A stretch of 64,000 nt of DNA from an uncultured bacterium (GTDB taxonomy: Bacteria; Poribacteria; WGA-4E; WGA-3G): assembly GCA_964523645.1 (NCBI GenBank), contig CAZGAW010000009.1, positions 123 to 64,122 of the forward strand. The letters run 5' to 3'. Below are positions 15,279 through 59,668 of the stretch, in pieces (positions within the stretch are counted from its first letter, which is position 1; each line of letters opens with the position of its first letter). The notes beneath the pieces were generated by a model. It had not been told where the DNA came from, made no database searches, and saw nothing but the letters and a program-made list of their open reading frames with translations. Position numbers and translations under genes: made by a program.

Positions 15279-15334
15279 ACCAGTAAGCGTAACGGCAGGT
15301 GAGACATCAGCCTGCCGTACATTACCTCAAAAGA

Positions 15335-15364
15335 TTGACATACCTCCCCAATCTGTGCTATAAT
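15335..15364 (+). promoter_or_regulatory. Near-consensus promoter (TTGACA-18-TATAAT)
   Basis: Read directly, 40 nt upstream of the Rpn-like gene remnant. Confidence 0.45.
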
Positions 15365-15403
15365 TTCCAAAAAGAGACACGCTAAAACTATAAAAGGAAT
15401 GAA

Positions 15404-15816
15404 ATGGCAAGTTTTGATACTGCCTCTAAGCCAACAAGCCAGAGTATCTTGGAAGTCTTGCAGTCTTAGGGAATTTAATCTACGATGCGCAAACGATTTT
15501 AGAGATTATTTCGGAGGAAACCATGCAACAATCTTCTATCGCTGAATACTTAGCACCAGAAGCACGTGAACAAGGAATCCAACAAGGAATCCAACAAGGA
15601 ATCCAACAAGGAATCCAACGGGGTGTGAGAGAGAGCACTCGTGAGAACATCCTTGAAATTCTAGCGATCCGTTTACAACCCGATACAGCGGAAACCTTCA
15701 AACCGACGCTGGAAGCGATCGATGATCTGCAACGTCTCAAGCAGTTGCATCGCGCCGCGATACTTGCAGAAAGTCCAGAAGATTTTACGCAAGCGTTGAA
15801 CGAAAAAAACAAATGA
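15404..15816 (+). pseudogene. Remnant of an Rpn/DUF4351-type gene (C-terminal part only, frame-broken)
   Basis: A 21-codon ORF runs 15404..15469. From 15430 a second frame reads ...LAVLGNLIYDAQTILEIISEETMQQSSIAEYLAPEAREQGIQQGIQQGIQQGIQRG.... This matches the C-terminal half of Rpn/DUF4351-type proteins. No nuclease core is present. Confidence 0.5.
15571..15618 (+). repeat. Perfect 12-bp tandem repeat x4 (caaggaatccaa), encoding (QGIQ)4
   Basis: Read directly. It lies in frame within the Rpn-like remnant. The antisense frame produces the WIPC repeat of the shadow ORF 15480..15812. Confidence 0.9.
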
Positions 15817-15877
15817 ACCTACTGGCATTTCCACAAATTATTTTGCTTAACATTAGAATATTAAAGGAGACATATCT

Positions 15878-17414: not shown

Positions 17415-18173
17415 TTGTTAAACTCAAGAATTATCACATTTATCCTTAGTGCGCTGCTCATATTGGGTGGTAGTCTGCTCAGCTCCGCAGAAATCACTGA
17501 AGACATGATTACGGCAGCATGGCTGTTTGATGGCGATGCCGCAGATGTATCTGGAAACGGATTTGATGGTGAGTTAGAAGGAGGTAAATTTGTTGGCGGT
17601 CAATTTGGAGACGCACTCGAATTGAACGGTAAAAGCGAGTGGGTCGAAATTCCGAAAAGGATCGGCGAATTTGAAGAAATTACCTTCGCACACTGGGTCA
17701 AATCCACAGGACGCGAAGGCGCGTGGCGCGTTTTCTTCAATGTCAACGGTTGGAAAGCCGGGGACATCCATTACCAGATGCACCCGAACAATAAAGTCGA
17801 GTTCTCCATTCACAGTAATCCGGGTGGAAACGACACTTTTGCGAACTATATGTTGGCAGGCGATGAAATGGATAAATGGGTCCATATCGCGACCGCCTAC
17901 AGTGCCAAGGAGAAGAAGATTCGCTTTTTCGTTAACGGCGAACTTGATATCGAAAACGATTGGGGTGGAAATCCTGGTGTCCTTGATCCGGCTCGGATTG
18001 GCGACTGGAACCAAAGCAGACAATGGGAAGGACTGATTGACGAGTTCATCATCTTCAACACTTTCCTTGATGAAGATGACGTACAAGCGGTTATGAATGA
18101 CGGTTTCGAGACGACACTCGCCGTGGACGCAAAACAGAAGCTGGCTGTCACGTGGGGTAGTCTAAAAAAATAA
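17415..18173 (+). CDS. Secreted LamG (Laminin_G_3 / ConA-like) domain protein with conserved C-terminal tail
   Basis: TTG start after AGGAG, then a signal peptide. LamG_3 pattern: WLFDGDA.D.SGNG..G...GGKFV.G.FGDALELNG...WVHIA...FFVNGEL...IDEFIIFN. The tail is LAVDAKQKLAVTWGSLKK. Confidence 0.75.
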   Translation: MLNSRIITFILSALLILGGSLLSSAEITEDMITAAWLFDGDAADVSGNGFDGELEGGKFVGGQFGDALELNGKSEWVEIPKRIGEFEEITFAHWVKSTGREGAWRVFFNVNGWKAGDIHYQMHPNNKVEFSIHSNPGGNDTFANYMLAGDEMDKWVHIATAYSAKEKKIRFFVNGELDIENDWGGNPGVLDPARIGDWNQSRQWEGLIDEFIIFNTFLDEDDVQAVMNDGFETTLAVDAKQKLAVTWGSLKK

Positions 18174-18181
18174 AAAAAATA

Positions 18182-18304
18182 GGACTTACGCAGTCTGCTT
18201 ATTTGTAGCACAAACTTTCCAGTTTGTGTCAGAAGAACCTGTGTATTTTTGCAAGAGTTCCCATCTCACAGGACGTGCTATGGAAACCACAATTGCGTAA
18301 GGCC
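18182..18304. mobile_element. MITE-like inverted-repeat element, copy B (123 bp)
   Basis: Same termini as copy A (GGACTTACGCAG and TGCGTAAGgCC). It shares the hairpin (18208..18229) and the GAGTTCCCATCTCACAGGACGTGCTA core. Confidence 0.65.
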
Positions 18305-18347
18305 TGAAAGAAACGATTATCAAATCGTTTTTAAAAGAGGAGATAAT

Positions 18348-19190
18348 ATGCTTTTGGCAAAACGCTATCTGAATTATACATTCACTGCAATTATTGTCAC
18401 TGCACTCAGCTTGGCGATGATAACCGTAAGCCGTGCGGCATTTGACGAAGGAGACATTGCAGGGATGTGGACCTTTGAAGAAGGTAAAGGTAAAGAGGTA
18501 AAGGATCTTTCCGGTAACGACACCCACGGCGAATTTGTCGGCGACCTGAAATGGGTGGAAGGCAAATTCGGCGGCGGATTAGAGTTTAACGGGAATGACA
18601 CTTGGGTCAAACTCGGCACTAAAGGCGAAGATAAAACGTTAGCCGCCTTGGACTTTAAGGAATCTAAAGGTTTTTCAATCCACTCTTGGGTTTACGCAGC
18701 AGAGGACCCAACCGGTAAATGTGTGATATGGAAAGGACTCGGGTGCTCAACTTGGTCTCAGTTTTTACTTGGCACAGGTGCACACGAAAACGGCGAAAAC
18801 AGCACACAGGCAGCGTTTCACATCCGCATTGCCAACGGCGGCGCGAAACTTGAAGTCCTCGGCGATAAACTTCAAGGTAGAGAGTGGATCCACCTTGTAG
18901 GCACATGGGACGGCTCCCAACTTCATGTCTATGTTAACGGCAAACTACAGAACTCCGAAGATGCGAAGGGCCCGCCGTGGGCATCTCCCGAAGAGGTTTA
19001 CATCGGCGCAGATCCAGGTTGCGGCAAACGTTGTCAGTGGAACGGTATCATCGATGAAGTCGTTGTCTTCGACACGGTGCTTTCCGATGATGATGTCGTA
19101 AAACTCGGTGAAGGCATTGAAGGCGCGTTAGCTGTTGATGCTGCCGGGAAAATAGCGACCACTTGGGGCTCGCTTAAGTCTTCTCAATAG
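18348..19190 (+). CDS. Secreted LamG domain protein with conserved C-terminal tail
   Basis: The track ORF starts at 18249 inside the MITE. The ATG at 18348 follows AAGAGGAG and is followed by a signal peptide. LamG_3 pattern: WTFEEGKG..VKDLSGN...GKFGGGLEFNG...IDEVVVFD. The tail is LAVDAAGKIATTWGSLKSSQ. Confidence 0.75.
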   Translation: MLLAKRYLNYTFTAIIVTALSLAMITVSRAAFDEGDIAGMWTFEEGKGKEVKDLSGNDTHGEFVGDLKWVEGKFGGGLEFNGNDTWVKLGTKGEDKTLAALDFKESKGFSIHSWVYAAEDPTGKCVIWKGLGCSTWSQFLLGTGAHENGENSTQAAFHIRIANGGAKLEVLGDKLQGREWIHLVGTWDGSQLHVYVNGKLQNSEDAKGPPWASPEEVYIGADPGCGKRCQWNGIIDEVVVFDTVLSDDDVVKLGEGIEGALAVDAAGKIATTWGSLKSSQ

Positions 19191-19230
19191 ATGTGCATCA
19201 AAACACACGCTATACATAGCATATTGAAAA

Positions 19231-19263
19231 GGAGATTTCCACCGAACTCAGGTGGACATCTCC
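19231..19263 (+). other. Intergenic hairpin (GGAGATtTCCACC-gaactca-GGTGGAcATCTCC), possible terminator/attenuator
   Basis: 13-bp stem with one mismatch, read directly. There is no strong T tract, so a terminator role is uncertain. Confidence 0.3.
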
Positions 19264-19282
19264 TTCATTACCTCTACTTAAA

Positions 19283-19993
19283 ATGAAAACCCTAAAACTG
19301 TGTGCTGTCAGTTTCTGTATTATCTCGCTGTTGTTTGGAAACGCAATGGCAGAAACGCTGTATTTTGATGATTTTGAGGGAAATTCTGAACTCAAATGGC
19401 CCGATGTACCAGCGATAAAAATTGAAAAAGACCCAAGCAATCCCGATAATACCGTTCTCATCTTTGACACAAAGAACGATCAGACCCATGCCGATGCCCT
19501 TTTCCTTGAAGGATTCGAGGATTTAACGGATTACACAATGCGGGCAAAATTCAACATTGTTGGTGAAACAGCGGAATTTGCCGCAATCGGTTTGATTGTG
19601 CGGGCGCAGTCAGTGACCGAATATATGCTCGTTGAACCGGCAAGAAAACGGTTGTGTTGTGGTGATCCAAGAGAAAATATTCTCAACGTCTTTGAGCGGG
19701 GTGCCGCCGGCTGGCCCATCGTCGCCAAAGCAGACATCGATATCGAACTCGACGAATGGTATGAACTGTCAGTCACTGTAGAAAACACGAAACTAACCGT
19801 CTCGCTCGATGGTAAACAGATTGCCGAATACGGTAAAGTTCCTTATCCAAAAGGTGGATTCGGTATCCGCGAGTGGAAATCTGAAACCCTCATTGACGAC
19901 GTAGAGGTATTCGATAAAGGCGGTTCAAGCCTCGCCGTCGAATCACGCAACAAACTTACCGTCACATGGGGAATGCTGAAAGCGGGACAGTAG
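19283..19993 (+). CDS. Secreted ConA-like jelly-roll protein (DUF1080/LamG-like) with conserved C-terminal tail
   Basis: Signal peptide, then LYFDDFEG...YTMRAKF...GLIVRAQ...GGFGIREW...IDDVEVFD. The tail is LAVESRNKLTVTWGMLKAGQ. Confidence 0.6.
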   Translation: MKTLKLCAVSFCIISLLFGNAMAETLYFDDFEGNSELKWPDVPAIKIEKDPSNPDNTVLIFDTKNDQTHADALFLEGFEDLTDYTMRAKFNIVGETAEFAAIGLIVRAQSVTEYMLVEPARKRLCCGDPRENILNVFERGAAGWPIVAKADIDIELDEWYELSVTVENTKLTVSLDGKQIAEYGKVPYPKGGFGIREWKSETLIDDVEVFDKGGSSLAVESRNKLTVTWGMLKAGQ

Positions 19994-20014
19994 ATTCCCG
20001 TAACCCATTAAGAA

Positions 20015-20168
20015 AACCTAAGTTGCCACTTGTAGCACAAACTTTCCAGTTTGTGCCTGTAAATGCGCAAACTAAAAGTTTACGGTACGAGATCTTTGCG
20101 GCTCCTGAACGCTTTTCACCGAAAAACAGGGCTGCCTACGCGAAATCTTATAAGTAGCAACTTGCGTT
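20015..20168. mobile_element. MITE-like element, diverged copy C (154 bp)
   Basis: Imperfect inverted termini AACCTAAGTTGCCACTT and AAGTAGCAACTTGCGTT (14/17). It carries the same hairpin as copies A and B, GCACAAACT-ttcc-AGTTTGTGC, at 20035..20056. Confidence 0.55.
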
Positions 20169-20203
20169 AAGAAACCAGAAACAGCGTAAAGGATGCAAAA
20201 TAC

Positions 20204-20992
20204 ATGGACTTAGGATTGAGTGGAAAACGTGCAATTGTTACCGGCGGTAGCCGAGGTATCGGTAGGCAGTGCGCGCTTGCACTCGCACGAGAAGGTGCGC
20301 ATGTCTGCATTGCTGCCCGAACACAAGACACACTCAATCAAGTCCTTTCGGAACTTGAACAAACCGGAGCCAAAGGACACGCCGTTGCAGTCAATCTAAA
20401 TGTCCAAGCGAATTGTGAAAAGGTGGTACAGGAGACCGTTGACCACTTCGGTGGTGTCGACATCCTCGTCAACAATGTCGGGGCGGCCCGGAATGCCGAT
20501 ATTTTAGAGTTGTCGCCAGAATTCATTACGGACGCGCTCGGTTTGAAAACCTATAGTTACCTCCGAATGTCGCAACTGGTTATCCCGTATATGCGGGAGA
20601 ATCAGTGGGGACGAATCATTAATATCGCAGGTTCAGCCGGCACAAGCCCCACCCGTGGCAACATACCAACAGGGGCTGCTAATATTACGATTCTTAACAT
20701 TACACGAGCACTCTCCGACGCTGTCGCAAATGATGGAATTTTGGTAAACACCGTATGCCCTGGATTGACGAACACCGGTCGAGCGCGCACACAACAAGGT
20801 GCGAGAGCCAAACGGGAAGGACGCGATGTCGAAACGTTGCTGCGAGAACTTGGACAGGAACTCCCAGCAGGTCGTATCGCGGAGCCGGAAGAGGTCGCGA
20901 ATGTGGTAACATTCTTAGCCTCTGAAGCTTGCTCCTATATGTTTGGGAGTGCAATCTATATGGATGGCGGCAAAAGACGCGCAACGCCATAA
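20204..20992 (+). CDS. SDR family oxidoreductase
   Basis: 262 aa with TGGSRGIG (cofactor motif), NNVG, and S...Y...K-type spacing. Confidence 0.75.
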   Translation: MDLGLSGKRAIVTGGSRGIGRQCALALAREGAHVCIAARTQDTLNQVLSELEQTGAKGHAVAVNLNVQANCEKVVQETVDHFGGVDILVNNVGAARNADILELSPEFITDALGLKTYSYLRMSQLVIPYMRENQWGRIINIAGSAGTSPTRGNIPTGAANITILNITRALSDAVANDGILVNTVCPGLTNTGRARTQQGARAKREGRDVETLLRELGQELPAGRIAEPEEVANVVTFLASEACSYMFGSAIYMDGGKRRATP

Positions 20993-21037
20993 GAGCCGTA
21001 AGTTCGTAAGGACGAGATCCCCTTAAGCCATATTAAG

Positions 21038-21186
21038 TTAACCTAAGTTGCCACCTTATAGAAAATAAACAAGAATTGTTGGGACAGGACTTAACAGAAC
21101 ACCAGAATTAGGGAAAATTCTTTGTGTTTTCAATCAAAAAGGGTGTATGTCTGTCTAAAACGTTGTAAGTCGAAACTTGGGTTAAG
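21038..21186. mobile_element. MITE-like element, diverged copy D (about 149 bp, no central hairpin)
   Basis: The left arm TTAACCTAAGTTGCCACCTTA is nearly identical to the left arm of copy C. The right arm GTAAGTCGAAACTTGGGTTAAG is its imperfect complement (about 15/21). Confidence 0.4.
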
Positions 21187-21226
21187 TTAAATCAAAAAAG
21201 AACTGATTTAAAGGAGGATTATTCCA

Positions 21227-22000
21227 ATGACGATTGCTAAGACTCTATCAACCCACAAATATCTCATCTTCTCGCTGGTGTCCGCTGCGCTTTTGGTCTG
21301 CGCTCCGATCGGCTTCAGCGAGGTTTTATACCTCGACGATTTTGAAGATGGGAAAATTGACGGCGATTATGAATTCAAGAACCATGACGGCGATTGGGTA
21401 GAAAAGGGGGGTGTTATCAGTCAAACCCACGAAGCACCCGGTGATCACACCTATCTCGTTCTTGATGGCGGGTTTCCAGAGCCCCATACAGGCTTAGTGA
21501 TGATTCGCGTCGATGACTGGGGAGACGGTGACCTTGCACGGTGCGGACTCGGATTTCGTCTCGATCCAGGCGATGCATCCGGCTACGCCTTCCTGATCCA
21601 CCATTTCCTCAACAACATGGAGTTCCTCAACGACCATCGCGCTTGGAAACAGAACGATACCGAACCCCCTTTCGGAGAGGTAGAACTCGGTACCTGGTAC
21701 TGGATGAAAGCCGAAATATCCGACGATGGGTTTACCGGCAAAATCTGGGAAGATGGTAAAGATGAACCCAAAGACTGGCTTCTTGAAAGTAAACTCGACT
21801 TCGGGGGGCCCAGACCTGAGAGCGGACAAGTCGGACTTAACGGCGGTTCCAGTCGGGGCGCGCCTGCGCTAACCATTGTCTCATTTGACAATTGGGCTAT
21901 CTGTGAAACGGCTGATGAGTGCACACCCGATGAAATCCTTGCTGTTCAGGCAACTGACAAACTTCCAAGTGTTTGGGGCGCACTCAAAGCACGCTACTAA
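21227..22000 (+). CDS. Secreted ConA-like jelly-roll protein with conserved C-terminal tail
   Basis: AAAGGAGG RBS and a signal peptide, then LYLDDFEDG...GLGFRLD...GYAFLIHH...GTWYWMKAE...GQVGLNG. The tail is LAVQATDKLPSVWGALKARY. Confidence 0.6.
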   Translation: MTIAKTLSTHKYLIFSLVSAALLVCAPIGFSEVLYLDDFEDGKIDGDYEFKNHDGDWVEKGGVISQTHEAPGDHTYLVLDGGFPEPHTGLVMIRVDDWGDGDLARCGLGFRLDPGDASGYAFLIHHFLNNMEFLNDHRAWKQNDTEPPFGEVELGTWYWMKAEISDDGFTGKIWEDGKDEPKDWLLESKLDFGGPRPESGQVGLNGGSSRGAPALTIVSFDNWAICETADECTPDEILAVQATDKLPSVWGALKARY

Positions 22001-22047
22001 ACAACCCCTCCTAACAAGCGATGGGGTTGATTATGAATGACAGCAAT

Positions 22048-22185
22048 GGGCGCGCTTATAGTAAAGTTGAAAAATAAGTTTACATTTCAGCAATGGCAGC
22101 CGCATCTATCACTGCTGGCGAGGTTTCTAACCTCGCCAATCTTTGAGTGTATAATTAATTGTGGACTTTACTATAAAAGCGCGCC
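22048..22185. mobile_element. Inverted-repeat element enclosing a REP-like hairpin (138 bp)
   Basis: The arms GGGCGCGCTTATAGTAAAGT (22048..22067) and ACTTTACTATAAAAGCGCGCC (22165..22185) are near-perfect complements. The CTGGCGAGGTT-tct-AACCTCGCC hairpin sits inside at 22115..22137. Confidence 0.55.
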
Positions 22186-22234
22186 TATCCACAAGTTGTA
22201 ATACGTGGATCAATATCCACATAAATATTAATGT

Positions 22235-22402
22235 ATGGGAACAATTTTACTCGTCATTTTCGGGATCATCGTTTTTGTTGTAGGGATCCTGATTATCTTC
22301 CAAATTTTGCAAGCAATTTTCGCCTTCCTATTCTCCGTTGCCTTGTTCATTGTCGTCGTTGGCGGCGCGTTCCTGATTCTCAGGAAAATTTTCAGAGAAT
22401 AG
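22235..22402 (+). CDS. Candidate small (55 aa) two-helix membrane protein, absent from the ORF track
   Basis: Manual translation gives MGTILLVIFGIIVFVVGILIIFQILQAIFAFLFSVALFIVVVGGAFLILRKIFRE. That is two hydrophobic helices and a basic C-terminus. No clear SD. It competes with the implausible Arg/Cys-rich track ORF 22231..22419. Confidence 0.35.
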   Translation: MGTILLVIFGIIVFVVGILIIFQILQAIFAFLFSVALFIVVVGGAFLILRKIFRE

Positions 22403-22469
22403 AAGGTACCAACATGTAAGACTTGGTTGGCACGTTTCCCATATACAAAAAATTAAAGGAAATTCTCTC

Positions 22470-23264
22470 ATGCTGCGAAAAGCTAATTTTGTGCTACTAA
22501 TTCTCGCCATAAGTTTAATCACAACCAATCTTCCTGCTCAAATCGTCGAAGATGGACTGGTTAGTTACTGGAGTTTCGATGCTAACAATGTTGACGGCAA
22601 AACCGTTAAGGACGGCACCGGCAATTACAACGGTACTATCAACGGCAATCTTAAAAAAGTGGCGGGCAAAATCGGTGATGCCTTGGAATTTGATGGAGAC
22701 GAGACAAACTTCGTCGAAATCGATAGTCCCGAAGATTTTGACTTCAACGCCGATTTCACCTGGTCGGCGTGGATTAAAACCGACTCTTCCGGTCCAGGCG
22801 TAATCTTCGCGAAAACGGGTGGTCCAGGGACTGATGATAAAGGCCCCAAAACTTTGTGGGTTCGCAACAGCGTCCTTAACCTCGACACCGGCTGGGTAGG
22901 CAATGTCGAAGATGCGGGCAACAACATTGACGACAATAAATGGCACCACATTGCTGTCGCAGGTACGCCAGAAGATAGTAAGGTCCAATTTTTCGTTGAT
23001 GGCGAAGCAACGGCTGAGGGCGTGCTGAATCTTGCCCAATTCCCTGAAGATGATTGGGCAAGTATCCACATGTTTATCGGTTTAGATGGTAGAGCCGACG
23101 GCGAATTCGGTGTTTTCACCGGTATCATCGACGAGTTTAGCCTCTACGATCGAGTGCTTGACGAAGCCGAAGTCGATCAGAACTTCAAGTCTGACACGGG
23201 ACTCGCCGTTGAGCCTAACGGCAAACTCGCAGTGACATGGGGTCAGATCAAAGCACATCGATAA
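22470..23264 (+). CDS. Secreted LamG domain protein with conserved C-terminal tail
   Basis: Signal peptide, then the LamG_3 pattern YWSFDANN.DGKTVKDGTGN...GKIGDALEFDG...WHHIAV...FFVDGE...IDEFSLYD. The tail is LAVEPNGKLAVTWGQIKAHR. Confidence 0.75.
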   Translation: MLRKANFVLLILAISLITTNLPAQIVEDGLVSYWSFDANNVDGKTVKDGTGNYNGTINGNLKKVAGKIGDALEFDGDETNFVEIDSPEDFDFNADFTWSAWIKTDSSGPGVIFAKTGGPGTDDKGPKTLWVRNSVLNLDTGWVGNVEDAGNNIDDNKWHHIAVAGTPEDSKVQFFVDGEATAEGVLNLAQFPEDDWASIHMFIGLDGRADGEFGVFTGIIDEFSLYDRVLDEAEVDQNFKSDTGLAVEPNGKLAVTWGQIKAHR

Positions 23265-23325: not shown

Positions 23326-24699
23326 ATGAAGGTCAAGAACCGAACCATTTTTGAAGGCGACAATCTGCATGTGCTTCGCGGTCTTGACCCTGATACCATT
23401 GATTTAATCTATCTGGACCCACCTTTCAACTCCAACCGCACCTTTGAGGCACAGATAGAGAGTGAAGCAGCCGGTGCAGCATTCAAAGATTCCTGGACAC
23501 CAAATGATTTAGATACCACGTGGCACGGCGAACTATCAGAGAAAACACCCGAGCTTTATCATGCCATCAGTACCGCTGAGTTCAGTCATGGGAAGTCCAT
23601 GAAAGCCTATCTCATCATGATAGCTATCCGGATGCTGGAGATGTATCGCATCCTGAAACCGACGGGTACCATCTACCTCCACTGCGATGATAACGCAAGC
23701 CACTACCTCAAAATGATGATGGATGGCATTTTCGGGAAAGATAATTTTAGGAATGAGATTGTTTGGCAAAGGGCTGTAACGAACAAAGGAAATCTCAAAA
23801 AAGGACTGGCACGAGATTCCGATCTCATCTTTCGGTATTCAAAAAGCAACGATTTCGTATGGCATCCTGATGCCGTCACGATTCCCTACGATATGGCGGA
23901 TCTCGACGAAAAGACCAAACGTCAATATTATTACGTTGAACCCGGCACTCGACGTCTCGTTTCGCATACCTCTATAACTGCTCAGACTCAGGACCCCGAT
24001 TCTCATCTCACTTATGAGGTAATGGGTGTCACCAGAACATGGCGATGGGCGAAATCTCGGATGTTGAAGGAGATTGAAGCCGGACGCGTTGTGCAAACAA
24101 ACCCCGGCAACGTTCCGCGATATAAACGGTATCTCGACGAGCAGAAAGGCAAAACACTGAACAACATCTGGTTGGATATTCCCAACTTAACCGCTCGCAA
24201 TAAAGAACGCATTGGGTACCCCACACAGAAGCCGATTGCCTTATTAGAGCGAATTATTCAAGCGAGCAGCAATTGGGGGGATGTGGTGCTTGACCCTTTC
24301 TGTGGGTGTGCCACTACATGCGTCGCGGCGGAACGCCTACAACGTCAATGGATCGGTATTGATTTAAGCCCTAAATCTTTCAAATTGGCAAAGCTGCGTC
24401 TTGAACAGCACGGTATCACCAAGACGGTTATCCATCGAAAGCCGAATCCTAAACTTTACCAGCAGCATCGAACCCATAAATATACGCTATTTGGACTGCA
24501 GGAAGGCAGATGCAATGGTTGTCAAATGTTAGCACCATTTCGTAAGATGACCGTCGATTACATTGTCGCGAAAGCCCAAGGTGGGACTGATACGCCTGAT
24601 AATCGGCAGTTGTTGTGTGGTGCGTGTAAATTGCTGAAAGAAAACGGTACACACGAACAACTGATTCAGACATTAAAAAACGGAGGAATTCTGGAATGA
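23326..24699 (+). CDS. Beta-class N6/N4 DNA methyltransferase fused to a C-terminal HNH-like domain
   Basis: 457 aa. Motif IV DPPFNS is near the N-terminus and motif I VLDPFCGCATT is near aa 320 (PF01555-type order). The C-terminal 64 aa read CNGC...VDYIVAKAQGG...DNRQLLCGAC, an HNH zinc-finger architecture with Tyr where the catalytic His is expected. Confidence 0.75.
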   Translation: MKVKNRTIFEGDNLHVLRGLDPDTIDLIYLDPPFNSNRTFEAQIESEAAGAAFKDSWTPNDLDTTWHGELSEKTPELYHAISTAEFSHGKSMKAYLIMIAIRMLEMYRILKPTGTIYLHCDDNASHYLKMMMDGIFGKDNFRNEIVWQRAVTNKGNLKKGLARDSDLIFRYSKSNDFVWHPDAVTIPYDMADLDEKTKRQYYYVEPGTRRLVSHTSITAQTQDPDSHLTYEVMGVTRTWRWAKSRMLKEIEAGRVVQTNPGNVPRYKRYLDEQKGKTLNNIWLDIPNLTARNKERIGYPTQKPIALLERIIQASSNWGDVVLDPFCGCATTCVAAERLQRQWIGIDLSPKSFKLAKLRLEQHGITKTVIHRKPNPKLYQQHRTHKYTLFGLQEGRCNGCQMLAPFRKMTVDYIVAKAQGGTDTPDNRQLLCGACKLLKENGTHEQLIQTLKNGGILE

Positions 24700-27609: not shown

Positions 27610-30600
27610 TTATAGGGTGGGTAATCCGGCAACGATCTCCACCGTCTTTAGACTGATATTAATGACACGCCCAATTAAATCTACAATATACTGCGGTTGG
27701 TCGACACGATTCGGATCGTTTTTAATGCCGCTCCGCCTATCCACCTTCACACGATACTGATCCACCACCCACTCCAATGCCGAACGCGTGCCTAACCGAT
27801 ACGCAAACACTTCGGCAGGAATACCGTCCAATATAAGGTAGTCGTTGTAGCGGATCTGTGTTTTGTCTTTAGAGAATTTCATCCGTTCCACACGCCAATC
27901 CACCTGCATATTCGGCGTTTCCTGAAGCACCAGTTTTTCATACTTCGGATAGGATTCATAGTTGAGATGGAGGTCCGCCAACTGCGCACCCGCTTCAGTA
28001 AATCCCCAGAAGTCTTCGGCAAAGGGGATATGGGGTAGATCTCGCTTGAGGTTCATCTCATATTTTTCGCGATAGGCGGGATGGTGCAGGAGACCGTAGG
28101 TATAGTGAAAGATGTCCCACTTGGTGAGGGTCTCGTCGCCGTAGTGGGTTCGGAATTCCGCCAATGCCCAATCGGTGATGTTTTCCTGTCGGTTTGTGCC
28201 GTCCTCATCGTAGGTGTAGAGGGGGAAGCATTGAAAACTGTCACTTGATGCGAGTGTATGAAGATCAGGAATTAGGTTCGTCATCAGGGTATTAAAACCT
28301 GAGCGGAAGCCATGATCACTGACGATTATCACCCGATTTTCTGCTTCGGTCCCTGGTGTGGGAAAAAATCGATGTTGTTGATAACGCTCCTCATTCCAAA
28401 AATTATCAAAGTAGAGATATTTTTGACAGAAGGGCCGATACAACGCCGTGCGGAAGTGGGTATCTTCATAGGTACTTAACTCCAGTTTTTTCAGTGATGC
28501 CTTAACTTGACGACTCCACTTGATCCGCGGGTCGTTTGTATCAATGAAATCCTCAACAGGAGTTTTAAGGTTGTGTCTTCTCTTTCTGTCAACAGCGGTA
28601 TTGTATATTTCAATAAAGGTGCGAACCCGTTCTTGTAGCAGAACGAGATCAAAGCCGTATGCTAAATTATCTCTGCTGGTAACAACGCCGTAAGAGTAGA
28701 GGCTAAAAATCGTTTCTCCATTTTCATTTTTCGTACTTTTTGATGCCTTATTTCCCATCGAAATAAAGGTTTCAAATTCGGGATTAAGCCCTTCGGTCAA
28801 CCACGTATGTCGGCTATCCGGTTGAATGGATTTCCACTCAATACTGTCAATGTGTTGGCACGCATTCAGAAAGTCAAATTTCTGTTGTCTGTTCCACAAC
28901 TCATCGGTACGATAGTAAAATATCTGGGATTTCTTTAATGATTTTTCCGGTTTCTTTTTTACAAACAAGTTGATGCTCACACCAACCCGAATCCCGAACA
29001 CATTTGCATCCGAGACCTTCAACCCCTTCCTTGCGTTTCCACCTAAATCCAGAGTATAGATTGAGTCGAAATCAGCTGCAAGGTGTTTCCGCATCCCGTC
29101 AAATGCGACACTATCAACAAAACTGTTGTTTGTTACGAAAGCAATAACTCCTTCTTTGCCAATCCGATCTGCTGCCCACCGTATTGCTTTCACGTATGGG
29201 TCGTAGAGTTTATTTCTAAGGGTTGCTTTGGAGTCTTTTACGTACGTCTCAGCAACCCGTTCATCCATCGTCTCATATTTCCGATTTTTGTTGTTGTCGT
29301 TTTCGTTAATCTGCCCCATGTTGTAAGGTGGATTGCCGATGACGACGAACATATCCGTAGCCTTCTGTTTCTCTACGCGTTCCGTGTTTTCACGTGTGAA
29401 GAGTTCGCCTTGCTGTTGTTCCAGCAGCTCAAACGTATCGGCAAGCACTATTCCCTCAAACGGTAGATACGTCCCTATGCGTTGGAAGAACTCCTGTTCG
29501 ATGTTCAAACTGGCGATGTAGTAGGGCAGGAGCATCACTTCGTTGCAATGGAGTTCGTGACGGTATTTCGCTTCCAATGCGGTGCCTTGGATGTCCTGCA
29601 TCAAACGGACGATAAAGTTGCCCGTCCCGACGAACGGGTCGATGATATGCACCCCCGTATCCGAGAGCGAGCGACCAAACTCGGTTTCTAAGATGTGCGA
29701 CACGCTGTTCACCATGAAATCAACGATCGGTTGCGGTGTGTAGACGATACCGTGTGTATCCGCCACGTCTTCAGAGAATCCCTGAAAAAATTTCTCATAA
29801 AAGGTGTTGAGGAAATGCTGTTTTTGGGAGAAGTCCTTGCAGAGTGCCGCTGCCTGCTCTATAGCAACGTAAAACCGGTCTAAGGGTTCCAGAAACACGT
29901 CCCGACTCACTTCATGCCGCATGAGTATGTAACTGACATTTTCAATCTCGCGGGCGATAATGTTTCGGAGCGTAAAGTCTGATCTATTGAAAACGGTTCG
30001 GAAAATTCGCTCGGTGAGGATATGTTGGATGAGCATCTCTTCAACGGCATCACGTGAGAGTTCCGGGTTAATGGAGGTGCGGCAGATTTCATAAAAATCA
30101 GTGAACGCCGCCTTGAACGCCGGATCGGTTTCGTGGCGTTGATCGATGAGTGTCTTCAACGCGTTCGCGAGGTCAGGTACATATTCTCTGAAATCGGAGA
30201 CAGCCGTTTGCCAATTGTCGAGCGCGGGCGGGACGTAAGAAAATAGATATTGAAGTGCAGCAATCAGGCGTGCCGGCTCGGTGATGTCCACGTCTAAGGC
30301 GTTCTGTCCGTTTTGATATAAAATGGCGCGTTGCGGTGTTTGGAAAAGGATATTGTCGAGTGGGTAACCCGCATCACATTTGTCTTGGACGGCTTTGACG
30401 AGATCATCGTCAATATCTTTCGCTTCCCAGTAGGCGAACGGGAGTCCGTATTCGTCGAGGACCACGCCATCAATCACAATACGGTTTCCTTCTGGACTAC
30501 GCATCGCATATTGGGGAATGAGCGTGGCGTTGAATTGTTTTGCACACGTATCCAGTAAAAAGGCAAAAGGATTGCTGACGGCGCCTTCGTGTGTGGCATT

Positions 30601-30678
30601 GTGCCGGTCATATTGCTGGAGCGTGGCGTAGTAGTCTCGAATCGGTTTGTGGGTGGGCTTTAGGTTCAGCTTCGGCAT
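27610..30678 (-). CDS. Type IIG (single-polypeptide) restriction-modification enzyme: N-terminal PD-ExK nuclease + gamma-class N6-adenine methyltransferase + C-terminal specificity region
   Basis: 1022 aa with D70...E85-A-K87 (IVIDG...YWEAKD), motif I IIDPFVGTGNF, and motif IV GNPPY. The long C-terminal region is of the kind found in Type ISP/IIG enzymes. There is no helicase domain. Confidence 0.7.
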   Translation of the reverse strand: MPKLNLKPTHKPIRDYYATLQQYDRHNATHEGAVSNPFAFLLDTCAKQFNATLIPQYAMRSPEGNRIVIDGVVLDEYGLPFAYWEAKDIDDDLVKAVQDKCDAGYPLDNILFQTPQRAILYQNGQNALDVDITEPARLIAALQYLFSYVPPALDNWQTAVSDFREYVPDLANALKTLIDQRHETDPAFKAAFTDFYEICRTSINPELSRDAVEEMLIQHILTERIFRTVFNRSDFTLRNIIAREIENVSYILMRHEVSRDVFLEPLDRFYVAIEQAAALCKDFSQKQHFLNTFYEKFFQGFSEDVADTHGIVYTPQPIVDFMVNSVSHILETEFGRSLSDTGVHIIDPFVGTGNFIVRLMQDIQGTALEAKYRHELHCNEVMLLPYYIASLNIEQEFFQRIGTYLPFEGIVLADTFELLEQQQGELFTRENTERVEKQKATDMFVVIGNPPYNMGQINENDNNKNRKYETMDERVAETYVKDSKATLRNKLYDPYVKAIRWAADRIGKEGVIAFVTNNSFVDSVAFDGMRKHLAADFDSIYTLDLGGNARKGLKVSDANVFGIRVGVSINLFVKKKPEKSLKKSQIFYYRTDELWNRQQKFDFLNACQHIDSIEWKSIQPDSRHTWLTEGLNPEFETFISMGNKASKSTKNENGETIFSLYSYGVVTSRDNLAYGFDLVLLQERVRTFIEIYNTAVDRKRRHNLKTPVEDFIDTNDPRIKWSRQVKASLKKLELSTYEDTHFRTALYRPFCQKYLYFDNFWNEERYQQHRFFPTPGTEAENRVIIVSDHGFRSGFNTLMTNLIPDLHTLASSDSFQCFPLYTYDEDGTNRQENITDWALAEFRTHYGDETLTKWDIFHYTYGLLHHPAYREKYEMNLKRDLPHIPFAEDFWGFTEAGAQLADLHLNYESYPKYEKLVLQETPNMQVDWRVERMKFSKDKTQIRYNDYLILDGIPAEVFAYRLGTRSALEWVVDQYRVKVDRRSGIKNDPNRVDQPQYIVDLIGRVINISLKTVEIVAGLPTL

Positions 30679-34592: not shown

Positions 34593-34646
34593 ATTCTATA
34601 TTTTTTGAACCGAAGCATAAAACTGAAAGGAGCGATTTATTTGTCT

Positions 34647-35360
34647 ATGCATGTTAGATACAACACCTTCGCAGCATTAATAACCTTCATTATCACGGCA
34701 TGTCTCGTGAGTGGTTGTGAAAGAATCCCGACACAGGTCATCACCGAGAAACCTATCGAAAAAGTCGCAGTTGCTACCATTACTGAAATAGATGGAAGTG
34801 GTCTGACAGGCACGGCGACATTCACGGAAATAGACGAGATGATTCACGTTGTAATCGAAGTTCAGAACGCCACCTCGGGTTTACACGCAATGCATCTCCA
34901 TACCGGCAGCAGCTGCGCCGACGCGGGACCGCACTGGCACCCTATGGGGGTTCCAGCAGGGACACCCGGTATACCTGTCGTCCAAGCGACGCTGGATACA
35001 CCACCTATCGGCATAGGTGAAATCGGCAATATCTCAGTTGGCGAAGAGGGTACGGGAGTCTTAGAATTTATGACCCCGTTCTGGTCTCTCGGCGGAGACC
35101 CAAACACTGATGTTCTCGGTAAACTCATCATGATTCACGAGGCAGGGGACACCTTCCTAACCAATCCACACGCGCATCAGACGAACGCGCAGATGGATAT
35201 GAATATGGAAGCAGACACGAATATGGAAACAATCCCACCACACTTCCATCCACCGGGGACACTCCCACATTCCCACGCCAACACGCAGATGAATTTGCCT
35301 GCCATCCAGCCGGGCGGTGGTGCCAGAATCGGTTGTGGCTTAATAGAAGTGATGGAATAA
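34647..35360 (+). CDS. Cu/Zn superoxide dismutase (SodC)-like lipoprotein with His/Met-rich insertion
   Basis: Lipobox LVSGC. GLHAMHLHTGSSC, GPHWHP, LIMIHEAGD and the C-terminal GGGARIGCGLIE match the SodC framework. The start could be 34605, 34641 or 34647. Confidence 0.6.
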   Translation: MHVRYNTFAALITFIITACLVSGCERIPTQVITEKPIEKVAVATITEIDGSGLTGTATFTEIDEMIHVVIEVQNATSGLHAMHLHTGSSCADAGPHWHPMGVPAGTPGIPVVQATLDTPPIGIGEIGNISVGEEGTGVLEFMTPFWSLGGDPNTDVLGKLIMIHEAGDTFLTNPHAHQTNAQMDMNMEADTNMETIPPHFHPPGTLPHSHANTQMNLPAIQPGGGARIGCGLIEVME

Positions 35361-41069: not shown

Positions 41070-41207
41070 AGCAAAATATCGTATCATTTAAAGTGAAGTT
41101 GTGTAGTCGTTGAATTTGAAGAGGGACACAACAGTATGGATGGGCTTTGTCGCTTTAAAGCCTGCAGCTCTTCGTCAACTTCTACCTTACAAAAAGGAGC
41201 ACTAATA

Positions 41208-42260
41208 ATGTTAAAATTTCAGATCGCTTTGATTGCGATCTTAATCGCTTGTGTCACCTTCGTATCCTGTGAAAGAGGACAGCAAATGTTAGATCCGGTT
41301 GCCGATGACATGATGGCAGCTGACGATATGATGGATATGATGGACCCAACAATGTATATGTCGTGGGCAAGCGTTTCACTTCCAGCACCCGAACAAACCT
41401 TAGAGGAAGCTATTGCAGCCATGAATCCTGGGGGAACCGGTGCAGCACACGGCGAAGGTACTCGCACCGCCTATATCAACGATATCGGTGTCATGGCGAA
41501 CATAGAAGGCACAGCTTATCCGGCAGGAACCACGATTGTCAAAACAATCATGGATGATGCCAACACATTTGTCGAAAAGAAAGCATTGATGACGAAAACC
41601 GACGATCCGATGTACGCCGATCATAATGGTTGGATGTACGTCAAGTATGCTCGCGCGTCCGAAGCGGACGAATACATGATGGTCGGCGGTGGTAGCTTAG
41701 AGAATAGCATGGGATGCCACGGATGTCACGCCAAAGCCGAAAACGACAGTGTCTTCGTCTCACTCGCTACGGATGATATGGAAGGTACAGACGACATGAT
41801 GATGGATATGGAAAGCCACACATCATGGGCACATGTCACACTTCCAGAGCCTGTCGGAACGGGGGCAGCTCACGGCACGGGTTCCCGTACTGTATATTTC
41901 AACGAAGCCGGTGCTATGGCAAACATGTCAGAAACAGCTTATCCCGCAGAGACGGTGATTGTCAAGGAATCCATGGATGCTACCAACACATTTGTTATGT
42001 CAGTCGTAACGATGACGAAAACCGACGATCCGATGTACGCTGAGCATAACGGTTGGATCTACGGCGCGACGCAGCGTCAATCAGCAGCAGATGAGTTAAT
42101 GATGCCACACCAACTGAGTGTGGAGATGGCAACGGGCTGCCACGGTTGCCATGTAAAAGCACCTAATGACAGCGTCTTCGTCTCACTCCCGATGGACGAC
42201 ATGATGGACGCGGATATGGGCAACAACGGCATGGATGGCAATGGTGCCGATGTCCAATAA
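41208..42260 (+). CDS. Lipoprotein with two tandem cytochrome P460-like haem-binding domains and Met/Asp-rich linkers
   Basis: The ATG at 41208 follows AAGGAG, and the lipobox is FVSC. Two about 130-aa repeats each end in GCHGCH.KA.NDSVFVSL (CXXCH at 41715..41729 and 42138..42152). Each also carries YPAGT.IVK and HNGW.Y motifs. Confidence 0.55.
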   Translation: MLKFQIALIAILIACVTFVSCERGQQMLDPVADDMMAADDMMDMMDPTMYMSWASVSLPAPEQTLEEAIAAMNPGGTGAAHGEGTRTAYINDIGVMANIEGTAYPAGTTIVKTIMDDANTFVEKKALMTKTDDPMYADHNGWMYVKYARASEADEYMMVGGGSLENSMGCHGCHAKAENDSVFVSLATDDMEGTDDMMMDMESHTSWAHVTLPEPVGTGAAHGTGSRTVYFNEAGAMANMSETAYPAETVIVKESMDATNTFVMSVVTMTKTDDPMYAEHNGWIYGATQRQSAADELMMPHQLSVEMATGCHGCHVKAPNDSVFVSLPMDDMMDADMGNNGMDGNGADVQ

Positions 42261-56664: not shown

Positions 56665-58068
56665 ATGAAAACGGAAACGCGGATCCCCTCAGCGATGCAC
56701 GCCCCCGGTGCAGTTCTTTTGATCTCTTGCTACGAGCTTGGGCACCGACCGATCGGGCTCACGCGTCCGCTTCACGCCTTTGAAGCCGCAGGATTCATGC
56801 CTGATGTAATCGATATTGCTGTCGAACCGTTGGATACTGAGAAGGTTGCGCGCGCAAAATTTATCGGTATCTCCGTTCCGATGCACACTGCTTTGCGACT
56901 TGGTGTTCATCTCTTACATCGCATTCAAGAAATCAACCCAGAAGCCTCTATCTGCATGTACGGGCTTTATGCCATACTCAACGCTGACTACCTACTTTCG
57001 CACGGTGTCGATTTTTGCATCAGCGGCACAACGTCAACACAACTCGTCGAGTTGATGCAATCCCTCGCGAAGGAAGAACAGTCTGAAACACAAGAAACAG
57101 GTCTCCCTATTGCGGAGCTGCCGCCGCTGGAGATGTACGCACACTTTGAAGACAAAGATGAGGTGCGAACCGTCGGTTATACCGAGACGACGCACGGGTG
57201 CAAGCATCTCTGCACACACTGTCCCATCCCGCCGGTCTATAACGGCAAATTTTCCGTTGTGCAACGTGATAGGGTACTCGCTGAAATAGAAGAGCAGGTG
57301 CTGGAAGGTGCGACGCATATTACTTTCGGCGATCCTGATTTCCTCAACGGGCCGACGCACGGACTCCGTATTCTCCGCGCAATGCACGAAACTTTTCCGA
57401 GTCTTACCTTCGATTTCACGACTAAGGTTGAGCATATCCTGAAAAACAGGGAATACTTCCCAGAATTCGCGCAACTCGGATGCAGGTTCGTCATCTCTGC
57501 CGTTGAAACCCTGAACGAAAGGGTACTAACGATCTTAGAAAAACATCACACACGCGCCGATGTAGCGGAAGCTATTGACATCGTTCACGGAGCAGGCATC
57601 GCGCTGCGTCCGACGTGGGTACCGTTTACACCGTGGACAACTTTAGACGATTATCTCGACCTCCTCAAGTTTGTTGATACGCATCGCCTTATCTATCACG
57701 TGGATCCGGTGCAGTACGCCGTTCGGTTGCTAATTCCCCCAGGTTCATATTTGCTCAATCGTCCCGAAACGCAAAAACTGTCACTTGTCCTTGACGAAGC
57801 CGCCTTCAGTTATACATGGACACACCCGGATGCACGAATGGATGAGCTTCACAAAACGGTCAATGCCCTCGTTGAAAATGACGCACGCGCCGGTGTTGAC
57901 GCGTTAGAAACCTTTTATCGGATATGGGCGCTCGCTGCCGACATGCGAGGACAGCCCCCACCGAAACGGAGGAAAGGAGTACATCCACAGGCACCACGAC
58001 TCACCGAAGCGTGGTTCTGCTGAGCGGAACCCACCGAAGGGCAGTTTGCCCCAATCCATTTTTTTTAA
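56665..58068 (+). CDS. B12-binding-domain-like radical SAM protein, candidate CUAEP-tail selenoprotein (in-frame TGA at 58021..58023 read as Sec)
   Basis: It has CKHLCTHC (CX3CX2C). The annotated ORF ends ...EAWFC-TGA and the same frame continues AEPTEGQFAPIHFF-TAA. This gives C-U-A-E-P, the tail I recall naming a radical SAM family. A hairpin follows the TGA. Confidence 0.55.
58024..58060 (+). promoter_or_regulatory. Candidate bacterial SECIS element
   Basis: A GGGCA-guu-UGCCC stem-loop starts 15 nt after the UGA, with possible outer pairing GGA/UCC. The loop contains GU. The structure was not computed. Confidence 0.3.
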
Positions 58069-58166
58069 ATATTGGGTTTCAGATAGATTTTTAGTATTTT
58101 TTAACTTATGAAGTTTCCTCCGAGTTCTTTCCTTGTCAAAACCCTTTAGATTATAAAGGAGAAAAT

Positions 58167-58853
58167 ATGTCAAAACAAATTCAAGAACTACTCAATTTAG
58201 AAACCGCTCCTGTTGCCGTAACATTTCATGATGTCCAACCTGATGGCATCTCCCGCACGGAAAAGTCTGAAGCCTCAGGCTGTACCTATTGGCGACGCGC
58301 AGCGGAAGGCAAGACCTTTTACACCGAAGCCTCCGACCACTATAACTGCCCGATAGGCTGCTACACGCATAACGTTGAATTACCAGATGCACAGATGGAG
58401 GAACTCGAAAATACACTCGGACTGATGGGTGAACTCGGCTACATCGCTATGGAAGAGGTCCCCGGTATTCCAACACGGGAAACGCCCTTTAAAAGTGCAG
58501 TCTACGCGCCTCTATCAGATGCAATTGAGACACCTGATGTTGTCATCATCTCCGGTACGCCGAGACAGATGATGCTCTTGATGGAAGCCGCAACCGCTGC
58601 TGGAATCGGTTCAGAAAACGGAATTATGGGACGACCAACGTGTGCAGCGATTCCTGCTGTCATCCAAAGCGAACGGAGTGTTAGCAGCTTAGGATGTATC
58701 GGCAACCGTGTGTATACCGCTCTCTCTGACGATGACTTCTACTTCGCTTTCCCCGGCAAACACATCGATGTGCTTATTGAAAAGTTAGAAACGATTGTGA
58801 ATGCGAATCAGGCATTGGAAGAGTATCACCAGCAACGGCAAGCGGAGCTTTGA
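58167..58853 (+). CDS. DUF169 domain protein
   Basis: 228 aa after AAAGGAG. APVAVTF...GCTYWRRAAEGKTFYT...HYNCPIGCY and the GRPTCA pattern are as in DUF169. Confidence 0.6.
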   Translation: MSKQIQELLNLETAPVAVTFHDVQPDGISRTEKSEASGCTYWRRAAEGKTFYTEASDHYNCPIGCYTHNVELPDAQMEELENTLGLMGELGYIAMEEVPGIPTRETPFKSAVYAPLSDAIETPDVVIISGTPRQMMLLMEAATAAGIGSENGIMGRPTCAAIPAVIQSERSVSSLGCIGNRVYTALSDDDFYFAFPGKHIDVLIEKLETIVNANQALEEYHQQRQAEL

Positions 58854-58858
58854 ACGTC

Positions 58859-59668
58859 ATGCAAAAAGTTGCAGTTATTACAGGGGCGGCAAGCGGCATC
58901 GGACGAGGATTAGCAGAACGGTTCGCAACGGAAGGTATGAAAGTCGTTCTTGCTGACGTTGAAGAACAACCGTTAGCCGAACTTGAAGCAGACTTAAACG
59001 CGAAAGGCGCAACGGTTCTCACCGTCAAAACAGATGTCTCAAATGCCGAAGAGGTCGAAAACCTTGCGAAGCAAACGCTGGACGCTTTTGGGGCGGTGCA
59101 TATCCTCTGCAACAACGCAGGAGTCGTTTGTAGTCGTCCCGTCTGGGAGCATCCCCTCGCTGATTGGGAATGGGTGTTAGGCGTTAATCTGTGGGGCGTG
59201 ATCCACGGCATCCGATCATTTGTGCCACGTATGCTCGCGCAAGGTGACGAATGTCATATTGTGAATACCGCTTCTATCTTGGGTTTGGTGGGCGGCAGTG
59301 GTGAAGGTATCTATAAGGTGAGCAAACACGGGGTCGTTGCGCTTTCCGAAACCCTCGCCGCCGAATTGGCACAGAAAGATGCTAATATTCAAGTGCATGT
59401 GCTGTGCCCCGGATGGGTTCGCACAGGGATTTTGGATTCCGCCCGAAACCGTCCGGACGCATTGCAAAATCCGGCGGAGATAGAGCGTCCACAGGAAATA
59501 ATCATTGGCGGTTCACGGAATAGCCGTGCTGAGATGGAGGCTGGACTATCACCTACGGAAGTAGCAGAACATGTCCATAACGCGATCCAGAACGGCACCT
59601 TCTATATCCATACACATCCTGAGCACAAGGCGTGGATTCTTGAGCGTATGGAACGTATCCTCGAATAA
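58859..59668 (+). CDS. SDR family oxidoreductase
   Basis: Starts MQKVAVITGAASGIG and contains NNAG and YKVSK motifs. Confidence 0.75.
   Translation: MQKVAVITGAASGIGRGLAERFATEGMKVVLADVEEQPLAELEADLNAKGATVLTVKTDVSNAEEVENLAKQTLDAFGAVHILCNNAGVVCSRPVWEHPLADWEWVLGVNLWGVIHGIRSFVPRMLAQGDECHIVNTASILGLVGGSGEGIYKVSKHGVVALSETLAAELAQKDANIQVHVLCPGWVRTGILDSARNRPDALQNPAEIERPQEIIIGGSRNSRAEMEAGLSPTEVAEHVHNAIQNGTFYIHTHPEHKAWILERMERILE

Follow-up and report, generated by a model that had tools for sequence, protein, structure and literature searches.

The stretch of DNA analysed here (64,000 nucleotides of contig CAZGAW010000009.1, from an uncultured member of the Poribacteria; hereafter the window) carries on its forward strand a gene for a radical S-adenosylmethionine (SAM) enzyme in which a UGA codon near the 3' end is very probably translated as selenocysteine (Sec). 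The gene starts at the ATG at 56665, homologs opening with MKTE or METE; an in-frame TTG at 56659 is the start given in the mechanical list of open reading frames (ORFs). The frame reaches UGC-UGA at 58018-58023, goes on as GCG GAA CCC ACC GAA GGG CAG UUU GCC CCA AUC CAU UUU UUU and ends at the TAA at 58066-58068, so that the C-terminus on read-through is ...LTEAWFC-U-AEPTEGQFAPIHFF. Standard gene calls stop at 58023, ending the protein at residue 452 and losing its last 15 residues. The features of the gene and of the RNA around the UGA are as follows.

56665..58068, + strand: predicted full-length coding sequence of a radical SAM selenoprotein with a CUAEP tail (467 residues, Sec453 among them), then TAA; 632 bits against the NCBIfam model NF040546.
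56719..57051, + strand: N-terminal Rossmann-like (B12-binding-like) domain, residues 19-129, from a sub-threshold match to Pfam PF02310 and the fold of a modelled homolog.
57199..57222, + strand: CX3CX2C motif (CKHLCTHC), residues 179-186, whose three Cys, invariant in alignments, ligate the radical SAM [4Fe-4S] cluster.
58015..58029, + strand: possible mini-hairpin UUCUGC-UGA-GCGGAA with the UGA as triloop; six pairs in RNAalifold, with one-sided wobble changes only.
58018..58023, + strand: vicinal dyad Cys452-Sec453 (UGC-UGA), the presumably recoded UGA lying at 58021-58023; TGA in 144 loci, TGC or TGT in 14.
58024..58065, + strand: C-terminal extension of 14 codons, made only if the UGA is decoded; AEPT..Q is in frame in all loci.
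58039..58051, + strand: putative core hairpin of a Sec insertion sequence (SECIS), GGGCA-GUU-UGCCC, 15 nt after the UGA; a 4-bp core of invariant geometry, closed by an A-U pair under a loop whose G is at 58044.
58066..58068, + strand: true stop, TAA.

The membership of the protein in a recognized family was assessed with NF040546 (rSAM_CUAEP, "CUAEP/CCAEP-tail radical SAM (seleno)protein"), an NCBIfam equivalog model with a curated cutoff of 500 bits. With U entered as C, the match of 632 bits (E = 5e-190) spans model positions 1-467 of 468, thus running through the UGA and the tail, where the C-[U/C]-A-E-P motif is encoded by UGC UGA GCG GAA CCC at 58018-58032. The Pfam Radical_SAM domain covers residues 174-313 (52 bits, threshold 29.5), and the only invariant Cys residues in the alignments are the CX3CX2C triad and the dyad Cys. 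In every respect compared, including the CX3CX2C motif and the W-F-C-U-A-E-P-T tail, the window protein is a plain member of the family and shows no difference from it. The initial annotation, made from the DNA letters, had placed the TGA after ...LTEAWFC and followed the same frame to the TAA at 58066..58068, and had pointed out CKHLCTHC, all of which the sequence bears out; the radical SAM family named for this tail, to which it pointed, is likewise borne out by the NCBIfam match. The B12-binding-like N-terminal region that it described is weak by sequence (24.2 bits against PF02310, below the gathering score of 32.1) and is supported by fold.

The family itself has already been catalogued. 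It has been named as an uncharacterised CU-motif selenoprotein whose structure and function are not well known (Haft, bioRxiv 10.1101/2022.07.06.499078), and Poribacteria orthologs with approximately 80-83% identity already bear the NF040546 family name in NCBI; it is missing from the table of a 2026 selenoproteome review. The selenoprotein family is real and already known, and the finding of it here is therefore a confirmation or rediscovery.

The comparative evidence for decoding of the UGA was drawn from 80 genome loci of relatives, fetched as DNA, and 80 more added by a metagenome scan; the codon at the Sec column was readable in 144 TGA-form and 14 Cys-form loci. An exact-sequence lookup of the window protein returned three 1.5-kb Logan contigs only, without context. 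At the protein level, the 120 closest database entries (79-94% identical, and Candidatus Poribacteria where named) all end at ...W(F/V)C, in agreement with the expectation of the initial annotation that gene callers would truncate such genes. At the DNA level, TGA followed by in-frame AEPT(E/D/Q/K)GQ(F/L) was found in all 79 genome loci that reach the site (Poribacteria, Gemmataceae and Rokubacteria/Methylomirabilota), and the TGA and the AEPT tail are kept even in Gemmataceae and Rokubacteria/Methylomirabilota proteins only 48-55% identical. Taking both sets together, TGA is the internal codon in 144/144 TGA-form loci, which represent six phyla or more; the 14 others have a Cys codon there (TGC or TGT), and their full-length products read ...W(F/Y)CCAEPT... 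and align at the same column, while the other gene calls end at ...W(F/Y)C. Alternation of Sec and Cys at a single column is the standard signature of a real selenoprotein. AEPT..Q is in frame in Sec and Cys forms alike, with an extension of 10-35 residues (median 14). The true terminators of the 144 TGA-form genes are split evenly (TAA 49, TAG 48, TGA 47), and the restriction of the internal site to TGA is thus not an effect of codon usage. Moreover, TGA ends neighbouring genes normally, as it does the gene for a protein of the DUF169 family in the window, so that the codon is not reassigned genome-wide, and among the other genes of the window with an in-frame TGA none had a Cys or redox context or a conserved extension.

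The hairpin downstream of the UGA was likewise analysed by comparison, since single-sequence folding is uninformative for so short an element; indeed, the minimum-free-energy structure of the UGA region does not pick it. With the U of the UGA numbered 0, the region up to +33 aligns without gaps across all loci, the spacing being fixed and free of indels. Positions 18-21 pair with 27-30, and in the window 22 can pair with 26; in one Rokubacteria-type register, 18-21 pair with 26-29 instead. Pair 20:28 occurs as G-C, G-U, A-U, U-A and C-G, pairs 18:30 and 19:29 as G-C, G-U and A-U, and 21:27 is always C-G. In an 80-sequence alignment the covariation score was reached by none of 500 column shuffles, and sliding the 3' arm by 1 to 3 columns lowered pairing from 91% to at most 64%. 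The full 4-bp hairpin is present at its offset in 142 of the 144 TGA forms and in none of the 14 Cys forms (Fisher p = 3e-18); in the two exceptional TGA forms four pairs are still made, with the help of 22:26. A loop G at +23 is found in 144/144 TGA forms vs 9/14 Cys forms, the next base being U, or G in a few lineages. The mean energy of the 22-nt segment is -9.1 kcal/mol in TGA forms (many at -10 to -16), compared with -1.8 in TGC and -4.2 in TGT forms.

These properties were compared with those of bacterial SECIS elements, for which the consensus requires a loop of 3-9 nt, an upper stem of 4-16 bp, a distance from UGA to loop of 16-37 nt, a G in loop position 1 or 2, usually followed by G or U, and an energy of -7.5 kcal/mol or lower (PMC13188914). 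The window element can be drawn with 5 bp in the stem and 3 nt (GUU) in the loop, or with a 4-bp core and a 5-nt loop (AGUUU), its loop beginning 19-20 nt past the UGA, and both the loop G and the spacing fall within the consensus. In all, it agrees with three of the four published criteria, and its energy is borderline for the fourth. It resembles the archetype in Escherichia coli fdhF in being an in-frame stem-loop just 3' of the UGA, with a small loop carrying G then U, and differs in being very short, with a 4-5 bp upper stem and no obvious lower stem. As judged from the sequence comparisons, the hairpin at 58039-58051 probably acts as a bacterial SECIS that would recruit SelB with Sec-tRNA(Sec) to the ribosome; Sec would then be inserted at the UGA and translation would run for 14 more codons to the TAA. 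The hairpin lies inside the coding sequence, and its stem also constrains the peptide. The codon of the 5' arm specifies Gly in 109/144 TGA forms vs 1/14 Cys forms, and the residue three after the arm codon changes to match, as in GGG...GCC (Gly/Ala), GGA...GUC (Gly/Val), GGC...GGC (Gly/Gly), GGU...GAC (Gly/Asp), GAC...GGU (Asp/Gly) and AGC...GGC-U (Ser/Gly-Ser); variation of the paired residue among Ala, Val, Gly and Asp keeps the pairing.

Two further Sec-form-specific biases lie outside the main hairpin. The Ala codon after the UGA (wobble base 58026) ends in a purine in 137/144 TGA forms vs 7/14 Cys forms (p = 2e-5), and the last base of the Thr codon at +12 is a pyrimidine in 126/144 vs 2/14.

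Several observations weigh against decoding as Sec. The hairpin region of the window (22 nt) has an energy of -7.2 kcal/mol, marginally weaker than the consensus limit, and by itself the hairpin is not significant against shuffles (z = -0.58, and -0.58 to -1.49 in folds of the UGA region). No SECIS was matched by Rfam, either across the whole window at the gathering threshold or in 57980-58120 at a permissive threshold, the Rfam models not covering this element. ARAGORN found no tRNA in the window, and thus no tRNA-Sec there, and tblastn with E. coli SelA, SelB and SelD gave nothing in the window or in the 2.24 Mb of fetched loci, as expected for local neighbourhoods and no sign that the genes are missing from the genome. 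The Cys-form controls amount to 14 loci only, and the 144 TGA loci are phylogenetically related and not independent. On the other hand, SelA (2), SelB (1) and SelD (1) are listed for Candidatus Poribacteria WGA-3G (PMC5649159, Table S4 COGs), and one of our loci (L031), a contig of that same WGA-3G genome, carries a TGA-form gene; SelA and SelB co-occur in most sponge-symbiont bins (PMC5649159). Furthermore, Sec-type hydrogenases have been reported from metagenome-assembled genomes (MAGs) of Poribacteria, Methylomirabilota, Acidobacteriota and Chloroflexota (PMC13582414), which are phyla where TGA forms of the CUAEP family were found.

Two other readings of the UGA need to be weighed. The codon could be recoded through the SECIS and SelB, with a tRNA(ReC)/selC*-type tRNA inserting Cys to give a CCAEP protein. 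The Cys forms of the family are clearly functional, which speaks for such an outcome, yet the WGA-3G genome has the Sec-synthesis enzymes SelA and SelD and not just SelB, and the keeping of UGA and SECIS in 144 loci over a simple UGC points to selenium as the selected feature; we consider Cys insertion very improbable. The reading of the TGA as a genuine stop, with the hairpin as an attenuator or intrinsic terminator and an AEP that is in frame by chance, can draw on the G+C-rich stem, on a run of eight T 7 nt after it in the window, on a window fold no better than shuffles and on database gene calls that all end here, but we rejected it as effectively refuted by the comparative data, given that the terminator scan does not call the hairpin, that the T-run is not conserved in other loci, that the internal codon is TGA throughout although each of the real stops of the family accounts for about one third, that AEPT..Q is kept in frame across phyla while Cys-form proteins read through and NF040546 extends past the site, and that the hairpin is missing exactly in the loci with a Cys codon.

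Considering this evidence, we conclude from sequence comparison that 56665-58068 most likely encodes a 467-residue CUAEP/CCAEP-tail radical SAM enzyme in which the UGA at 58021-58023 is translated as selenocysteine (probability about 0.95), and the explanation as a whole also appears highly probable. The suggestion of the initial annotation that the apparent stop is Sec is thereby supported by the family model, the alternation of TGA and Cys codons and the covarying hairpin. The stem-loop that it had noticed 15 nt after the UGA lies at exactly that position, covaries and is absent from Cys forms, and the alignment of homologs that it proposed as a check gave a column of TGA or Cys codons with a conserved AEPT..Q after it.

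The genes next to the selenoprotein gene were examined across the same loci. As described in the initial annotation, two genes follow on the same strand, for a DUF169 protein and a short-chain dehydrogenase/reductase (SDR), and two ABC-2 permease genes diverge upstream. The two downstream genes are:

58167..58853, + strand: DUF169 protein of 228 aa, preceded by an AAGGAG ribosome-binding site, with four invariant Cys and an Asp-His; Pfam PF02596, 107.8 bits.
58850..59668, + strand: SDR oxidoreductase whose start overlaps the DUF169 stop, a Poribacteria-specific partner; Pfam adh_short, 171.8 bits.

DUF169 lies downstream in 57/64 Poribacteria loci, always in the same orientation and in 46 cases no more than 500 nt away, and its linkage extends to Gemmataceae, Methylomirabilis, Acidobacteriota, Chloroflexota and unnamed metagenome contigs, with Sec and Cys forms alike. 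Comparison of the window protein with those of L063, L064, L067, L084-L086, L088, L091, L093, L097, L107 and L129 revealed that this linked subfamily has four invariant Cys (in GC-x-YW, DH-x-x-C, RPTC and GCIGNR) and an invariant Asp-His across at least five phyla, a pattern that suggests a putative metal or Fe-S site. The DUF169 partner had no sequence match in the PDB and no NCBIfam model, and DUF169 is mentioned in the literature only in passing, as a neighbour of hgcAB in Nitrospina, in a list of YedE associations and in a table of fitness data for Desulfovibrio. The SDR gene is present in 57/64 Poribacteria loci and unlinked in other phyla. The ABC-2 permeases, found in 21/64 Poribacteria loci and never in other phyla, were rejected as functional partners.

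Outside the Poribacteria, additional partners were found in loci L066-L080, L084-L086 and L094-L167. A gene for a small Nfu protein or for an NfuA-type protein (Fe-S_biosyn plus NifU) is directly adjacent in 18 of the 50 well-flanked non-Poribacteria loci, and an ATP-grasp gene, whose product has the C-terminal domain of L-amino-acid ligases and a weak similarity to BacD and DdaF, also occurs in 18 of the 50; in the high-G+C Rokubacteria loci both were located by tblastn, past spurious antisense ORFs. A gene of YggX type (Fe(2+) trafficking or protection from oxidative damage) lies directly upstream in 13 loci, and in an Acidobacteriota locus (L085) IscA, Mrp/ApbC and DUF971 genes share the operon of the radical SAM gene. 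The window and the other Poribacteria loci have none of these Fe-S carrier or repair genes and no ATP-grasp gene nearby; the divergent Poribacteria locus L070 is an exception, with a gene of NfuA type just upstream. Together, the recurrent partners suggest a small pathway that needs resupply of Fe-S clusters and may yield an amino-acid-like product. In one Poribacteria MAG (Plut_88888) TGA-form copies lie on two contigs (L022 and L023) in different contexts, both 80% identical to the window protein, which may represent a paralog or strain heterogeneity.

With respect to the function of the enzyme, an AlphaFold2 model of a Cys-form homolog was obtained with high confidence (mean predicted local distance difference test, pLDDT, 93.4; predicted TM score 0.92), the PRLTExWFCC segment being ordered (block pLDDT 78-89). 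The nearest solved folds are those of AprD4 (6fd2), OxsB (5ul3), TsrM (6wte), MgmA (9ccb) and MiaB (7mjx), with LipA also among the matches; the first four are class-B-like radical SAM enzymes that have a Rossmann domain at the N-terminus. The overall fold agrees with AprD4 at a TM score of 0.68-0.72 (E = 3e-19). Identity to AprD4, OxsB, TsrM, MgmA and MiaB is 14-19% only, and those enzymes are without a C-terminal Cys-Sec tail. As regards cobalamin, the fold is like those of OxsB and TsrM but equally like that of AprD4, which is not known to use it, and the PF02310 score is below threshold. A sequence search of the PDB with the radical SAM protein gave no match, nor does the PDB hold an ArsL-like structure.

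At the sequence level, the second best family model is that of ArsL (NF040542, RCCLKC-tail). ArsL forms the C-As bond of arsinothricin; its three tail Cys bind As(III), and SAM's 3-amino-3-carboxypropyl group is moved onto arsenic through an Fe-C organometallic intermediate, SAM being converted to methylthioadenosine. Both proteins have the same domain order, and in a MAFFT alignment the C-terminal Cys-Cys of the RCCLKC tail falls on the C-U dyad. Vicinal Cys-Sec pairs, which are rare among selenoproteins, also occur in the SAO-locus proteins and in HgcA and MerT variants, and CU motifs have been tied to heavy-atom binding (Haft, 10.1101/2022.07.06.499078). These other CU-motif proteins differ in having unrelated folds and contexts, and no mercury, arsenic or thioredoxin-system genes occur in the neighbourhood studied here. 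Based on this analysis, the mechanism that we favour, though tentatively, is that the enzyme works like ArsL. The [4Fe-4S] cluster of the CX3CX2C motif would cleave SAM, possibly at S-C(gamma), giving a 3-amino-3-carboxypropyl species, while the Cys452-Sec453 dyad, on its ordered C-terminal segment, would carry or hand over a soft atom (metalloid, metal or chalcogen) as acceptor of the SAM-derived group, with the support of Fe-S proteins.

Several findings speak against this mechanism. The ArsL score of 322.5 bits is below its cutoff of 450; the tail is CU/CC-AEP, with two thiol(ate)s instead of three and no RCCLKC; no arsM or ars gene was found among the scanned window ORFs of at least 150 aa; and about half of the non-Poribacteria loci have no partner gene nearby. 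Further differences are a linker of about 45 residues before the dyad, missing in ArsL, and the context of the cluster motif, CxHxCxHCPIPPVY in the CUAEP family vs CHHxCTYCSVF in ArsL. In place of the arsM/ars genes that accompany ArsL, the partners found here are DUF169, Nfu and an ATP-grasp ligase, and no arsenic genes occur among the annotated cluster representatives and neighbour genes of related loci. Failing membership on score, tail and context, the enzyme can be said to "work like" ArsL, but not to "be" ArsL.

Among the alternatives, the dyad might be a redox-active tail comparable to that of mammalian thioredoxin reductase, whose C-terminal Gly-Cys-Sec-Gly (GCUG) forms a redox-active selenenylsulfide. 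The dyad would then supply a canonical 5'-deoxyadenosyl-radical site with electrons or a hydrogen atom, without binding a heteroatom substrate. A C-terminal vicinal C-U is the very arrangement of thioredoxin reductase, and the best fold matches (AprD4, OxsB, TsrM and MiaB) are canonical 5'-deoxyadenosyl enzymes; the failed ArsL cutoff, the missing third tail Cys and the absence of a metalloid-resistance context point in the same direction. Nevertheless, no characterised protein is nearly as close in sequence as ArsL, whose Cys pair falls on the dyad in the alignment, the survey of Haft ties CU motifs to heavy-atom binding, and the Fe-S carriers and the four-Cys DUF169 protein would be left unexplained, so that we regard a purely redox role as rather unlikely.

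An insertion of sulfur or selenium like that carried out by LipA, BioB or MiaB seems more doubtful. In such a scheme an auxiliary Fe-S(e) cluster, or a persulfide or selenosulfide on the dyad, would be consumed, and Nfu/NfuA or YggX would rebuild the cluster, just as NfuA regenerates the auxiliary cluster of LipA. The frequency of Nfu/NfuA and YggX-type neighbours outside the Poribacteria, the IscA and Mrp genes of the L085 operon, the MiaB and LipA fold matches and weak MiaB/RimO hidden Markov model matches to the radical SAM protein would all fit. Against it, the radical SAM protein has no extra conserved set of Cys for an auxiliary cluster, the Poribacteria loci (including the window) are without Nfu genes nearby, and the Fe-S carriers could simply serve DUF169 or the radical SAM cluster.

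An extension of the ArsL-like mechanism to the whole family is equally speculative and, in our view, improbable as it stands. The CUAEP/CCAEP family, whose hosts include sponge symbionts, Acidobacteriota, Rokubacteria/Methylomirabilota, Chloroflexota and Planctomycetota, might constitute a widespread second ArsL-type non-canonical branch, in which a soft atom other than arsenic (e.g. selenium, a further metalloid, or sulfur supplied by an Fe-S donor), presented by the Cys-Sec dyad, would attack a SAM-derived 3-amino-3-carboxypropyl group or be attacked by it, with the four-Cys DUF169 protein and dedicated Nfu/NfuA/YggX Fe-S carriers in support. The resulting unusual amino acid would be ligated into a small metabolite by the ATP-grasp L-amino-acid-ligase homolog.

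Elsewhere in the window, two genes for DNA modification were identified. A 1022-aa ORF on the reverse strand (27610-30678) combines a Type ISP restriction-modification coupler, an N6 methyltransferase and C-terminal specificity domains; as no nuclease or helicase domain was matched, it may be a truncated or methylase-only relative of Type ISP systems. In a 457-aa ORF on the forward strand (23326-24699), an N6/N4 DNA methylase domain is joined to an HNH endonuclease domain at the C-terminus. A carbohydrate-processing set, of a kind typical of Poribacteria, is made up of four GFO/IDH/MocA oxidoreductase genes in tandem, the three Laminin_G_3 (concanavalin-like) paralogs that come after them (11783-16915 and 17415-23264) and three xylose-isomerase-like TIM-barrel genes (2613-6864). 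A cytochrome P460-domain protein with two matched stretches (41136-42260) and a Cu/Zn superoxide dismutase homolog (34605-35360) are not linked to the radical SAM gene.

The deposited proteins of this family end at residue 452 in essentially every entry, and with the loss of the Sec, presumably important in catalysis, and of the conserved AEPT tail any structural or biochemical work based on them would deal with a crippled enzyme. The CUAEP enzyme belongs to the small number of radical SAM selenoproteins and to the rare proteins with a Cys-Sec dipeptide, and its nearest relative makes an unusual carbon-arsenic bond. New in this work are the covariation of the SECIS hairpin and the conserved partners, namely the four-Cys DUF169 protein, Nfu/NfuA/YggX and the ATP-grasp ligase. 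The contrast between TGA forms with a SECIS and TGC forms without one offers an unusually clear case from nature in which the structure of an RNA dictates the protein sequence that it overlaps. DUF169, the Fe-S carriers and the ATP-grasp ligase provide concrete handles on what the enzyme does; the value of the finding thus lies in the correction of a truncated annotation and in making the function of the family experimentally approachable through SECIS covariation and partner genes.

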